From: a virus
Lineage: Duplodnaviria > Heunggongvirae > Uroviricota > Caudoviricetes
Direction: 5' to 3' (one strand)
IMG/VR virus record: IMGVR_UViG_2609459856_000007
Location: 1-64,000 of that record
Length of the DNA: 64,000 nucleotides
In this document: one piece after another, positions 10,482 to 19,432 of the stretch
Layout of the letters: each line of letters begins with the position of its first letter
Position numbering within the stretch: position 1 is the stretch's first letter
The notes under the pieces: generated by a model
The model's database searches: none
Seen by the model: the letters and a program-made list of their open reading frames with translations, nothing else
Told to the model about the DNA's origin: nothing
Made by a program: the position numbers and the translations under genes

Positions 10482-10641
10482 TTTATGGTGTCATAAACTT
10501 AAATCTAGCGCCGGGTAGAACAAGTTAATCGAACGATGTAGCGGCCATTTAGGCGTTACAGAAAGAACAGAATTTTAAATTTATAGTGAAGCCGTTGCAG
10601 CAACTTTGTGGGGTGCAACCAACACTGAACAGGAAAAGAAA

Positions 10642-13065
10642 ATGGATCATAGTGTACATAACAAGCTCATCTCATTTATTTGGAACATTGCCGACGACTG
10701 TTTACGTGATGTGTACGTTCGCGGTAAGTACCGCGATGTGATTTTACCTATGGTGGTATTACGACGTTTAGATACGTTACTTGAACCCACCAAAGAAGCC
10801 GTGCTTGAAGAGGTCAAGTTCCAAAAAGAAGAGATGCAAGCCACGGAGCTTGATGATGAACCATTGAAGGCGGCTAGTGGTTATGTTTTTTACAATACAT
10901 CTAAATGGACCCTGAAATCCCTGTTCAACACCGCAACGAATAACCAACAGATATTACTCGCCAACTTTGAAGAGTACCTGCTTGGCTTTAGCGATAATGT
11001 TAAAGAAATCATTGAATGCTTTAACCTCAAGTCGCAAATTCGTCACATGGCCTCAAAGCAAGTCCTTCTTGATGTCGTCGAAAAGTTTGTTTCCCCTTAC
11101 ATCAACTTAACTCATGAAACGGTCGAAGACCCAGATGGCAACAAGATGCCAGCCCTTACTAACCTGGGTATGGGGTACGTGTTCGAAGAGTTGATCCGTA
11201 AGTTCAACGAGGAGAATAACGAAGAAGCCGGTGAGCACTTTACACCTAGGGAAGTGATTGAGCTGATGACACACTTGGTTTTTGACCCAGTGAAAGAGCA
11301 GCTACCATTGACCATGACCGTTTACGACCCTGCGTGTGGTAGCGGTGGTATGCTCACTGAATCTCAAAACTTCATTGAAGAGAAATACCCGAACGACAGC
11401 CGAGATATTTACCTTTACGGCAAAGAGATCAATGACGAGACCTACGCGATTTGTAAATCGGACATGATGATCAAAGGTAACAACCCTGAGAACATCAAGG
11501 TAGGCTCAACCTTGTCTACCGACGAGTTTGCGGCTTCACGCTTTGACTTTATGTTGTCTACCCCGCCATACGGTAAGAGTTGGGCGTCTGAACAGAAGTA
11601 CATTAAAGACGGCAGTGATGTGATTGACCCGCGTTTTAAGGTTAGCCTGAAAGACTATTGGGGAAATCTCGAAGTGGTGGATGCCACGCCACGTTCGAGT
11701 GATGGCCAGCTGCTTTTCTTAATGGAGATGGTCAACAAGATGAAAGATCCGAGCGTAAGTCCATTAGGCAGCCGGATTGCCTCTGTTCATAACGGCTCAT
11801 CGCTCTTTACCGGTGATGCGGGCGGTGGCGAAAGTAATATTCGTCGCTTCATCATTGAAAACGACATGCTAGATGCCATCGTTCAGTTACCTAATAACCT
11901 GTTCTATAACACTGGCATTACCACTTACATTTGGGTGTTGAGCAACAATAAACCTGAGGCGCGTAAAGGTAAGGTGCAATTAATTGATGCCAGCTTGCTC
12001 TACCGTAAGTTGCGCAAGAACTTAGGTAACAAAAACTGCGAATTTGCGCCTGAGCACATCACGGAAATTACCGATACTTACCTCGCGTGTAAGGATGTTG
12101 AAAGAGCACTGGATGCAAACAATGATCCTGTTGGCATCGCCAGTAAGGTATTCAGCAATGACGATTTTGGCTACTACAAAGTCACTATCGAGCGCCCAGA
12201 TCGCCGCAAAGCCAAGTTTACTCAAGATGCCATAGCCCCACTGCGTTTTGATAAGCAACTTAGTGAAGTGATGGAGTACGTGTACGCAGAGCACGGCGAA
12301 CGTGTTTACGAAAAAACTGGCTACGGGTCAGATCAGAAAAAGAGCTTCTTAAAATCCATCGAGAAAGACATTCTTTCTTGGTGTGAAGATAACGACATCA
12401 GTCTCAATGCTAAGGCTAAGGCCAAACTGCTTGATGTGAAACACTGGCTGGCGCTAAAAGCATTGCTTGAAACTGCACAAACGCTGATGGCTGACATCGG
12501 TAGCATTGAATTTGATGACTTCAATAGCTTTAAAACCCAAGTTGATAAATCGCTAAAAGCCCATGCTATTAAGCTTTCAGCACCTGAGAAAAATGCCATT
12601 CTTCACGCGGTGAGCTGGTATGACGAAACCGCCAAGAAAGTGGTTAAAAAGGTAGTTAAATTAACGGGTGATAAATTAAACGACCTGCTGGAGCGCTATG
12701 AGTGTGAAGTCGCTGACTTGCCAGATTTTGGTTATTACCCCGTTCCTTCAGCAGAAGGCGGTAAAAAAGGCGAGTATATCACTTACGAGACCAATTCAGA
12801 CCTGCGAGATACAGAATCTGTTCCATTAAAGCAAAGCATTTACCAGTACTTCCTAGATGAAGTGAAGCCTCATGTCGATGAAGCATGGATAAACCTAGAT
12901 ACGGTAAAAATTGGCTATGAAATCAGCTTCAATAAGTATTTCTACCGTCATAAACCGCTGCGTAGTTTAGAAGAGGTCGCAACCGACATCATCAACCTAG
13001 AACAAAAAGCCGAAGGTTTGATTGCGCAGATTCTTGGTGCGGAAGTAAAAAAGGTTCAGGGGTAA
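10642..13065 (+). CDS. hsdM: Type I restriction-modification methyltransferase subunit HsdM (long form with C-terminal extension)
   Basis: N6-adenine methyltransferase motifs (DPACGSGGM, STPPYG); track ORF starts at 10606 but ATG at 10642 with upstream GGAAAAG is the likelier start. Confidence 0.85.
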   Translation: MDHSVHNKLISFIWNIADDCLRDVYVRGKYRDVILPMVVLRRLDTLLEPTKEAVLEEVKFQKEEMQATELDDEPLKAASGYVFYNTSKWTLKSLFNTATNNQQILLANFEEYLLGFSDNVKEIIECFNLKSQIRHMASKQVLLDVVEKFVSPYINLTHETVEDPDGNKMPALTNLGMGYVFEELIRKFNEENNEEAGEHFTPREVIELMTHLVFDPVKEQLPLTMTVYDPACGSGGMLTESQNFIEEKYPNDSRDIYLYGKEINDETYAICKSDMMIKGNNPENIKVGSTLSTDEFAASRFDFMLSTPPYGKSWASEQKYIKDGSDVIDPRFKVSLKDYWGNLEVVDATPRSSDGQLLFLMEMVNKMKDPSVSPLGSRIASVHNGSSLFTGDAGGGESNIRRFIIENDMLDAIVQLPNNLFYNTGITTYIWVLSNNKPEARKGKVQLIDASLLYRKLRKNLGNKNCEFAPEHITEITDTYLACKDVERALDANNDPVGIASKVFSNDDFGYYKVTIERPDRRKAKFTQDAIAPLRFDKQLSEVMEYVYAEHGERVYEKTGYGSDQKKSFLKSIEKDILSWCEDNDISLNAKAKAKLLDVKHWLALKALLETAQTLMADIGSIEFDDFNSFKTQVDKSLKAHAIKLSAPEKNAILHAVSWYDETAKKVVKKVVKLTGDKLNDLLERYECEVADLPDFGYYPVPSAEGGKKGEYITYETNSDLRDTESVPLKQSIYQYFLDEVKPHVDEAWINLDTVKIGYEISFNKYFYRHKPLRSLEEVATDIINLEQKAEGLIAQILGAEVKKVQG

Positions 13066-13071
13066 GTCGTT

Positions 13072-14346
13072 ATGATGAAGATTTCTGAAATGCCGAAATA
13101 TGAGGTTTATAAGGATTCAGGTGTTGAATGGCTAGGGGATATTCCTGCGTCTTGGAGCTTATTAGCTAATAAGCACATCTTTCGCTTGAAGAAAAAACAG
13201 GTTGGAAAACGCTCAAGCGAATATGATTTGCTATCGCTTACTCTCAGAGGTGTGATTAAGCGTGATATGGAAAACCCAGAGGGTAAGTTCCCAGCAGAGT
13301 TCGATACTTATCAAGAAGTGCAGTGTGGAGATTTCATTTTCTGCTTGTTCGACGTGGAAGAAACACCCAGAACTGTTGGGTTGTCGCCATTTAATGGGAT
13401 GATTACTGGTGCATATACCGTTTTTGAACTAAATGACAATTTTGATAATAGGTTTTTATACTATTTTTATATGAACCTTGATGCAAAAAAGATGCTTAAA
13501 CCGCTTTATCGTGGCCTGAGAAATACAATTCCTAAAGATTCATTTCTGAGTTTTAAGACGTTTGTTCCTCCCCATGAGCAACAAACCCGTATCGCCAACT
13601 TCCTAGACAAGAAAATCGCTCTAATCGACGAAGCGATTTCGATCAAAGAAAAGCAAATTAATCTGTTAAAAGAACGTAAGCAGATCATCATCCAACAGGC
13701 GGTGACCCAAGGGCTTGATCCCAATGTGCCAATGAAAGACTCCGGTGTGGATTGGATTGGTAAGATTCCAGCGCATTGGAACTTAATGTCATTGAGATAT
13801 GCGTTTGAGTTTCTTAACAGTAGAAGAGTTCCAATAAGCGCAGTTGAGAGAGAGTCGAGACAGGGCGTATATCCGTATTACGGAGCAAGTGGTGTTATCG
13901 ATTATGTTGATGACTACATCTTTGATGAAGATTTAATCTTGATCGCTGAAGATGGCGCGAATTTGCTAAGCAAGTCAACACCATTGGCTTTTGTTGCAAC
14001 TGGAAAGTATTGGGTGAATAACCATGCACATATTATTAAGCCAAAATTTCATGGTTTTAAATACTGGGCCGAATTATTAAGCGGATTGGACTATACGGTA
14101 TATATTTCTGGTGCGGCACAGCCAAAATTAACAAGGGATCGTCTTGCAAGTGTATTGGTTCCAGTGCCACCAAAAGATGAAATTCAAGAAATAATTTCGT
14201 TCATTGAAGGAATTGAGCCAGATCTGAATCGCACGATTGATATCCAAAAGTCGCAGATTGAAAAGCTTAAAGAATACAAAACCACCCTGATCAACAGCGC
14301 CGTGACAGGAAAAATAAAAATCACCCCAGAAATGGTTGAGCAATAG
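13072..14346 (+). CDS. hsdS: Type I R-M specificity subunit HsdS
   Basis: 424-aa ORF between hsdM and hsdR with two-TRD-like repeated architecture and a conserved central coiled region. Confidence 0.8.
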   Translation: MMKISEMPKYEVYKDSGVEWLGDIPASWSLLANKHIFRLKKKQVGKRSSEYDLLSLTLRGVIKRDMENPEGKFPAEFDTYQEVQCGDFIFCLFDVEETPRTVGLSPFNGMITGAYTVFELNDNFDNRFLYYFYMNLDAKKMLKPLYRGLRNTIPKDSFLSFKTFVPPHEQQTRIANFLDKKIALIDEAISIKEKQINLLKERKQIIIQQAVTQGLDPNVPMKDSGVDWIGKIPAHWNLMSLRYAFEFLNSRRVPISAVERESRQGVYPYYGASGVIDYVDDYIFDEDLILIAEDGANLLSKSTPLAFVATGKYWVNNHAHIIKPKFHGFKYWAELLSGLDYTVYISGAAQPKLTRDRLASVLVPVPPKDEIQEIISFIEGIEPDLNRTIDIQKSQIEKLKEYKTTLINSAVTGKIKITPEMVEQ

Positions 14347-18551: not shown

Positions 18552-18565
18552 AAAGGAGTGATGGT

Positions 18566-19252
18566 TTGCTGAAGGCAGTCTCAGAGTTATTAGGTGGGTC
18601 ACCAGGCCTGAAAGGACGTCAAATTGCCAAGGAGCTGGGGCTGGTCAGCTGTCAGCAGCCGACTCACCGGTATAAACGTGGTGGTCATGAACATGTTGCT
18701 ATCCCTAACTACCTTGAACGGCAGTTCGCCGTGACCGAGCCAAATCAGGTGTGGTGCGGTGATGTGACCTATATCTGGACGGGTAAGCGCTGGGCGTACC
18801 TCGCCGTTGTTCTCGACCTGTTCGCAAGAAAACCAGTGGGCTGGGCCATGTCGTTCTCGCCGGACAGCAAGCTCACCATGAAATCGCTGGAAATGGCATG
18901 GGAAACCCGTGGTAAGCCCGGCGGGGTGATGTTCCACAGCGATCAGGGCAGTCATTATACGAGCAGGCAGTTCCGGCAGTTATTGTGGCGATACCAGATC
19001 AGGCAGAGTATGAGCCGGCGCGGAAACTGCTGGGATAACAGCCCAATGGAACGCTTCTTCAGGAGTCTGAAGAACGAATGGATGCCGGTGGTGGGTTACG
19101 TAAGCTTCAGCGAGGCAGCTCACGCCATAACGGACTATATCGTTGGATATTACAGCGCACTAAGACCGCACGAATATAACGGTGGATTACCCCCAAATGA
19201 ATCGGAAAATCGATACTGGAAAAACTCTAACTCGGTGGCCAGTTTTTGTTGA
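18566..19252 (+). mobile_element. IS3-family transposase OrfB fragment (5'-truncated IS remnant lacking orfA and the left end)
   Basis: DDE integrase core motifs ([30 protein letters not shown]); begins immediately after the hsdR stop. Confidence 0.75.
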
Positions 19253-19432
19253 CCACTTCATCTACACTCGCGGCATTGGAAGCAAAGATATGGTCGTCTG
19301 GCACCTGATGCACATTGATAAGGCTATCAACCACACGCTGGAGAAGTTCTTTCCACCAGCCTGAACACAATGATTGTGCGCCTTATAGCGCCCATTAAGA
19401 TAGATAAGTACTTACCAACAAGGAGAAAACAC

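Follow-up and report, generated by a model that had tools for sequence, protein, structure and literature searches.

A probable fresh pseudogene of the MdgA/PDC-S11 family within a type I restriction-modification operon of a mosaic phage-plasmid

We analysed a type I restriction-modification (R-M) cassette in a 64,000-nucleotide (nt) stretch of viral DNA, hereafter "the window" (positions 1 to 64,000 of the IMG/VR record IMGVR_UViG_2609459856_000007). The list of open reading frames (ORFs) and their translations shows four co-oriented, closely packed genes on the plus strand, in the order hsdM, hsdS, an embedded gene and hsdR (Table 1). The embedded gene lies 9 nt from hsdS and 14 nt from hsdR. 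A first-pass annotation had described hsdM, hsdS and hsdR together with an embedded gene split by a stop codon, and all of these features are found in the ORFs and in Pfam searches. The split is caused by a single TGA with both halves in one frame, as that annotation reported, and the 387-codon frame is otherwise uninterrupted. HsdS has two target-recognition stretches, and HsdR has an N-terminal nuclease and a superfamily 2 motor, as expected of type I enzymes; both genes are identical to those of the intact sister cassettes (such as locus L088). We conclude, with a probability of roughly 0.85, that the embedded gene belongs to the MdgA/PDC-S11 family and was knocked out recently by one nonsense change, and hence that it is a fresh pseudogene rather than a recoded or split gene.

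The profile search proposed with the first-pass annotation gave a full-length match. The intact 387-amino-acid (aa) version of the protein (WP_001349632.1, P0002) matches the PADLOC profile PDC-S11 (PDLC04913) with an E value of 4.5e-182, residues 1–383 aligning to profile positions 1–373 of 375. The C-terminal part contains Pfam DUF4268 (E 3.6e-40 for the distal part of the interrupted gene), and the first 113 aa give weak Pfam matches to NucS_C and PDDEXK_4. The NCBIfam NucS profile is matched with an E value of 2e-5, over profile positions 127–201 only and with 23.7 bits against a cut-off of 216. We aligned 76 full-length representatives sharing no more than 50% identity; E26, D63, K79, Q90 and Y94 occur in every one of them, and E77 is conserved in at least 90%. 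Three of these residues, D63, E77 and K79, make up the DLLALD...IIENK motif picked out in the first-pass annotation. Judged by sequence, the conserved set E26, D63, E77-x-K79 and Q90-xxx-Y94 is a PD-(D/E)xK signature with a RecB/NucS-type QxxxY motif. In the family profile, the segment D63–Y94 aligns with the catalytic segment of Pyrococcus NucS (PDB 2vld). The embedded protein differs from NucS/EndoMS in that it lacks the N-terminal DNA-binding domain of NucS, carries DUF4268 and is found in a defence context. A HMMER search of 1.84 billion cluster representatives returned 5537 relatives, 480 of them with E <= 1e-30.

The embedded gene thus belongs to a known family, catalogued as PDC-S11 and with a characterised member, MdgA; it is not new. 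Neither family name was given in the first-pass annotation. PDC-S11 was described by Payne et al. 2024 (bioRxiv 10.1101/2024.01.29.577857), who defined PDC systems by "guilt-by-embedding" in type I R-M, bacteriophage exclusion (BREX) or DISARM systems. The gene in the window resembles PDC-S11 in its full-length match to the hidden Markov model and in being nested in such a system; unlike MdgA, PDC-S11 is a candidate only, with no assigned mechanism. MdgA (modification defence gene A) comes from a 2025 metagenomic selection, in which an insert from a human faecal metagenome was recovered and tested as a stand-alone gene (Cell Host Microbe 2025, PMC12366544; bioRxiv 10.1101/2025.02.28.640651). 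For defence in E. coli, MdgA is both required and, on its own, sufficient, and it acts against Mu as well as T4 (PMC12366544). The purified protein degrades T4 DNA containing glucosylated hydroxymethylcytosine (glucosyl-hmC) and is much less active on T4-GT7 DNA, and an E77A substitution abolishes both nuclease activity and defence (PMC12366544). Like the embedded protein, MdgA is encoded by one ORF that combines a NucS-like nuclease with DUF4268, and its homologues are widespread across phyla. Furthermore, the published E77A primer encodes VIV[E>A]NKLDD; the corresponding stretch of the window protein is VIIENKLDD, and its Glu is likewise residue 77. The window copy differs from MdgA in sitting within a type I R-M operon and in being cut short at codon 114. 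We found no statement tying PDC-S11 to MdgA in the literature searched, and a scan of JGI metagenome contigs for MdgA with the E77A primer, its wild-type codon restored, gave 0 matches.

What would the intact protein do? Its resemblance to MdgA suggests a nuclease of one polypeptide that acts in the manner of type IV restriction enzymes and cuts phage DNA with hypermodified bases, such as the glucosyl-hmC of T4 or the mom modification of Mu. Hypermodified DNA would escape the surrounding type I enzyme, and the operon would thus cover both unmodified and hypermodified invaders. DUF4268 would be the presumed reader of the modification; the authors of the MdgA study suggested it as a substrate-recognition module (PMC12366544). 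DUF4268 is also fused to GmrSD-family type IV enzymes (Machnicka et al. 2015, PMC4619093), which resemble the embedded protein in joining this domain to a nuclease directed against modified phage DNA. Their nuclease module is DUF262/DUF1524 (HNH-type), in contrast to the PD-(D/E)xK fold predicted here. The first-pass annotation offered "decayed accessory defence" or "toxin module" as descriptions of the gene. The second finds no support, given that the characterised family member is a stand-alone modification-dependent DNA nuclease. The first agrees with the orthologues, in which we find one uninterrupted 387-aa ORF under constraint: the ratio of nonsynonymous to synonymous substitution rates (dN/dS) for the full 387-codon frame is 0.03–0.05 against five alleles. 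Hence, elsewhere the gene is one unit under purifying selection.

Comparison with close relatives identifies the lesion. Codon 114 is TTA (Leu) in relatives, including the uninterrupted versions that the first-pass annotation suggested looking for in orthologous cassettes, and the window has TGA through a single T>G transversion at 14696. Residue 114 is the sole difference between the conceptual product in the window and an intact E. coli protein (P0117). The 9337-nt acquired segment that carries the cassette is 99.979% identical to three copies on SSU5-like phage-plasmids with an intact embedded gene (L088, L092 and L093), and differs from them at 11561 and 14696 only. Among 28 complete E. 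coli genomes matched by a 71-nt probe, none has the TGA allele, and 31 of the 37 close copies in PLSDB are annotated as intact. We have seen the TGA allele only in the window contig and in one Logan assembly. The ENA contig L007 (554 bp) had come up as a further carrier and was rejected: it ends two bases into codon 114, and its final "TT" is that of the wild-type TTA. Exact-match look-ups of truncated products can mislead in this way, the contig having been returned for the 113-aa protein through its own end.

The window is part of a 2014 draft assembly (GCA_000700365.1) and equals bases 1–64000 of its contig JNMN01000021.1; a locus fetched through the exact HsdM sequence matches it with 100% identity and at the same coordinates. 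A single-base difference in such a draft could be a sequencing or assembly error, the gene itself being intact. The Logan contig does not share the other lineage-specific base, at 11561, which fits such an error. The TGA itself, however, is present in that separately built Logan assembly of SRR1186779 (contig L006), which nevertheless has two other differences from the window over 14.8 kb. We therefore consider an erroneous TGA very unlikely.

The first-pass annotation also raised the possibility of a recoded gene, in which readthrough of the TGA, or selenocysteine insertion at it, yields the full-length protein. The two halves share one frame and there is no other lesion, which would fit recoding. 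However, the ancestral codon is TTA in every relative, neither TGA nor Cys, and the TGA allele occurs in one plasmid lineage only. Rfam gives no match at E <= 1 between 9500 and 20500, so the cassette has no recognisable selenocysteine insertion sequence, riboswitch or intron RNA, and the 66 nt from the TGA form no more stable a fold than shuffled sequences do (z 0.16). The base after the TGA is G. Leaky UGA contexts in E. coli are those followed by C or A; a following G is not leaky. Programmed recoding is extremely unlikely on this evidence, and the suggestion finds no support.

A different possibility is that the TGA created a functional split gene, with a 113-aa nuclease core and a separately initiated DUF4268 protein acting as two subunits. 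The 113-aa piece retains E26, D63, E77, K79, Q90 and Y94, and DUF4268 is a separable module that is fused to other nucleases, including GmrSD and MdgB. Nonetheless, the modelled fold runs past residue 113: the remnant lacks the predicted strand 158–163, the conserved residues F140, F166, E169 and W176, and the whole of DUF4268, and would on this model be inactive. The first in-frame start past the stop is a TTG 26 codons on, without a Shine-Dalgarno-like sequence. To see how relatives are organised, we gathered 80 loci from different species (54–98% identity) with an 18-sequence alignment of embedded-gene homologues. The orthologues are single ORFs; tblastn recovers nearly the whole protein in all of these loci except L045 and L083, so that two separate genes, the outcome the first-pass annotation had named as fatal to its own proposal, are not what relatives show. 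The allele is also evolutionarily brand new. A working pair of subunits is highly improbable, and since there is no credible restart site past the stop, we favour a fresh pseudogene over a recoded or split gene. The T>G change at the TTA for Leu114 would then remove the function of the gene in the window.

The location of the gene is itself conserved. With profiles for HsdM, HsdS and HsdR that were derived from the window and refined in one iteration, we searched the ORFs of the 80 loci and found the order hsdM-hsdS-X-hsdR on one strand, where X is the homologue of the embedded gene, in 46 of the 80; the gap between hsdS and X is often 3–20 nt. About one third of homologues lie outside type I systems detectable by these profiles, in other defence islands. 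Neighbours at five loci with no type I system detected (L051, L061, L027, L015 and L076) include BREX BrxL with a KAP NTPase, a Zorya-like pair of EH_Signature and SNF2/Mrr proteins, NERD, Schlafen/AlbA_2 and a DUF4379 zinc-finger nuclease. It is well established that defence genes can be nested in type I operons. The slot between hsdS and hsdR is also that of PrrC in the type Ic system EcoprrI, a tRNA(Lys) anticodon nuclease that is under ABC-ATPase control and that the R-M complex holds latent. The embedded protein could similarly be a guard, silenced by the type I complex and triggered once phage anti-restriction proteins disable it. The shared slot, the tight gaps on both sides and the retention of the position across species are consistent with such a role. 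In contrast to PrrC, the embedded protein has a predicted DNA-nuclease fold, and Pfam, PADLOC and NCBIfam scans found no ABC-ATPase or anticodon-nuclease domain in it. Moreover, MdgA needs no partner for defence in E. coli and is active when purified, and the third or so of homologues outside detected type I systems sit in other defence islands. A PrrC-like guard therefore seems improbable.

The second base that distinguishes the window from its relatives lies in hsdM. Codon 307 (11560–11562) is ACC (Thr) in the window and AAC (Asn) in all six related loci compared (L088, L092–L095 and L006), owing to a C in place of A at 11561. The resulting N307T substitution changes motif IV from NPPY to TPPY. 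NPP[FY] is present in 47 of 49 HsdM homologues from the fetched loci. The HsdM of the window has an N6-methyltransferase domain and lacks the catalytic (N/D)PP(Y/F) motif IV of type I enzymes. Substitutions of the equivalent residues N266 or F269 in EcoKI cause loss of activity, and changing NPPF/NPPY to APPA in other type I enzymes abolishes methylation. HsdM is full length, and from these comparisons its methyltransferase is probably impaired. The first-pass annotation called hsdM complete, which is true of the length of the ORF but not of its catalytic motif; the substitution had gone unnoticed. With both lesions, the cassette seems to be losing its function overall.

An alternative to neutral decay is that loss of the embedded nuclease and of the methyltransferase was favoured in the phage-plasmid or its host. 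Both lineage-specific substitutions in the 9337 nt fall at critical sites (L114* and the Asn of NPPY), and of the possible single-base changes in the segment only 4.0% introduce a stop and 0.1% affect NPPY. The embedded gene has also been damaged independently in a second plasmid lineage, by a 1-nt deletion and a 22-bp duplication (see below). This calculation is, however, post hoc and concerns two events, one of which, N307T, is not confirmed by the second assembly. In addition, most plasmid copies keep both genes intact, as do two P1-like mosaics (L094 and L095), which argues against a general incompatibility. We had considered incompatibility of the intact gene with P1-like backbones in particular; the intact allele in these two mosaics rules it out. 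Selected disarmament is a doubtful explanation on balance.

As a further consequence of the TGA, around 820 nt of untranslated mRNA past it may lower hsdR expression. A promoter scan between the start of the embedded gene and hsdR found no promoter-like site, and only 14 nt separate the two genes; hence, the nonsense change may cut hsdR expression by polarity. A specific, stepwise version of selected disarmament can also be envisaged. The nonsense change, shared with SRR1186779, would have come first; polarity would have lowered HsdR, and the later N307T change, found in the window only, would then have been tolerable. We regard this sequence of events as unlikely. If it were true, embedded defence genes would double as "valves" that control expression of the restriction subunit downstream.

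Several points weigh against our reading of a knocked-out MdgA-like gene in a cassette that is losing function. The homology to MdgA is judged from the domain architecture and from a motif of 9 residues numbered identically in both proteins, and not from a full-length alignment, and the substrate of the 387-aa orthologue group is extrapolated from MdgA. That DUF4268 reads the modification is a proposal from the literature rather than a finding. The AlphaFold model of the embedded protein is moderate (mean predicted local distance difference test score 70, predicted template modelling score 0.44), and a Foldseek search with it gave no significant match in the PDB. N307T is missing from the Logan contig that shares the TGA, and may reflect variation between strains or a fault in assembly. 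Thr is akin to the Ser of SPPY motifs, so HsdM may keep some residual activity. Finally, the possible polarity on hsdR is deduced from gene spacing and a simple promoter scan.

Decay of the embedded gene is not confined to the window. In four further plasmids (pB379_2, pEc1675, CP058829 and pXJW9B263-1), codon 365 has lost 1 nt through a common deletion; in the last of these, 22 bp at codon 339 are tandemly duplicated as well. On E. coli phage-plasmids, decay of this gene is sporadic and recurrent, and most copies are intact. The instance in the window is ordinary decay of a known family and opens no new question. Its value lies mostly in annotation. RefSeq lists a "DUF4268 domain-containing protein" in hundreds of enterobacterial, Vibrio and Proteus genomes; such proteins can be interpreted as MdgA-like, PDC-S11 modification-dependent nucleases. 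The cassette in the window should not be counted as active defence, with its nuclease truncated and the catalytic motif of its methyltransferase substituted. The window copy is also a natural knock-out, two bases away from intact sister plasmids, and could be used as a ready-made isogenic control for the function of the family.

The cassette is horizontally acquired cargo, as the first-pass annotation supposed. Near-identical copies are found on SSU5-like phage-plasmids, in E. coli chromosomes (between insertion sequence (IS) remnants) and on many enterobacterial plasmids. Furthermore, SXT-like integrative and conjugative elements (ICEs) of Vibrio cholerae (L098 and L100) carry an hsdM-hsdS-DUF4268-hsdR cassette at 98% protein identity. 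Near-identical copies in Vibrio, Proteus, Providencia, Alteromonas and Shewanella are explained by the location of the cassette in an SXT-like ICE. In the V. cholerae ICEs it lies between rumAB-like genes and traI, adjoining a CBASS (SMODS/SAVED) operon. The Vibrio ICE copies have a full BrxR/WYL regulator gene upstream of hsdM (L098:5227-6141). In the window this gene is reduced to 18 codons, and the enterobacterial cassette is therefore without its likely repressor. In the phage collection there is no close homologue of the embedded protein, the best match having 35% identity over 56%; hence, the gene is cargo of plasmids, ICEs or chromosomes and not a typical phage gene.

The edges of the cassette can be placed precisely. 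Identity to cassette-bearing plasmids begins exactly at 10315, so that the junction between backbone and acquired segment is 10314/10315. The longest ORF for hsdM is 10606–13065, from a TTG; RefSeq starts the gene in otherwise identical relatives at the ATG at 10642. From the breakpoint it is 291 bp to the TTG, matching the earlier estimate of about 290 bp past the phosphatase breakpoint, and 327 bp to the ATG. The right edge is, as previously described, a 5ʹ-truncated IS3-family transposase of which only the rve part remains; RefSeq labels the same piece in relatives "missing N-terminus". A short-word blastn comparison of the left and right edges for flanking IS inverted repeats gave chance 8–9-mers only. 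The left edge of the cassette occurs once in the window.

Table 1. Features of the cassette and its surroundings. Positions are those of the window unless a locus is named.
Feature	Position	Strand	Basis
Metallophos ORF (calcineurin-like phosphatase, P1-like backbone), truncated	10019..10330	+	Pfam Metallophos, profile positions 2-79 of 191
Acquired segment with R-M cassette, 9.3 kb (9337 bases)	10315..19651	+	blastn against L088, L092, L093
BrxR/WYL-type regulator remnant, final 18 codons	10472..10525	+	tblastn of L098 BrxR protein, residues 287-304, E 2.9e-6; alignment
hsdM, 807 aa	10642..13065	+	Pfam HsdM_N and N6_Mtase; PADLOC MTase_I E 3.6e-267
hsdS, 424 aa	13072..14346	+	Pfam Methylase_S, two stretches; PADLOC Specificity_I
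mdgA-like/PDC-S11 gene, 387 codons, probable pseudogene here: NucS-like PD-(D/E)xK nuclease and DUF4268	14356..15519	+	
Premature TGA, codon 114; TTA (Leu) in relatives	14695..14697	+	T>G at 14696
hsdR, 1005 aa, intact	15534..18551	+	Pfam HSDR_N, SWI2_SNF2, ResIII, T1R_D3-like
IS3-family transposase, 5ʹ-truncated, right edge of cassette	18566..19252	+	Pfam rve, rve_3, rve_2; integrase core only
Loci of the independently decayed lineage	L005:5569-6731; L004; L001:7069-8253		

Positions 1–34000 of the window are a mosaic phage-plasmid, in which P1/P7-like replication and partition functions are joined to SSU5-like phage-plasmid DNA at 10314/10315. Bases 1284–9654 are P1/P7-like and include repA and parAB. 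The DNA from 10315 to 19651, and onward to about 34000, matches SSU5-like phage-plasmids of E. coli; genes for terminase, helicase and ParB come after the cassette in this part. Two sister mosaics, L094 and L095, are rearranged. A RecA-like gene lies beside the cassette in SSU5-like phage-plasmids, and it encodes either 779 aa with an intein/LAGLIDADG insertion (L090:3226-5565) or 406 aa without it (L088:4348-5568).

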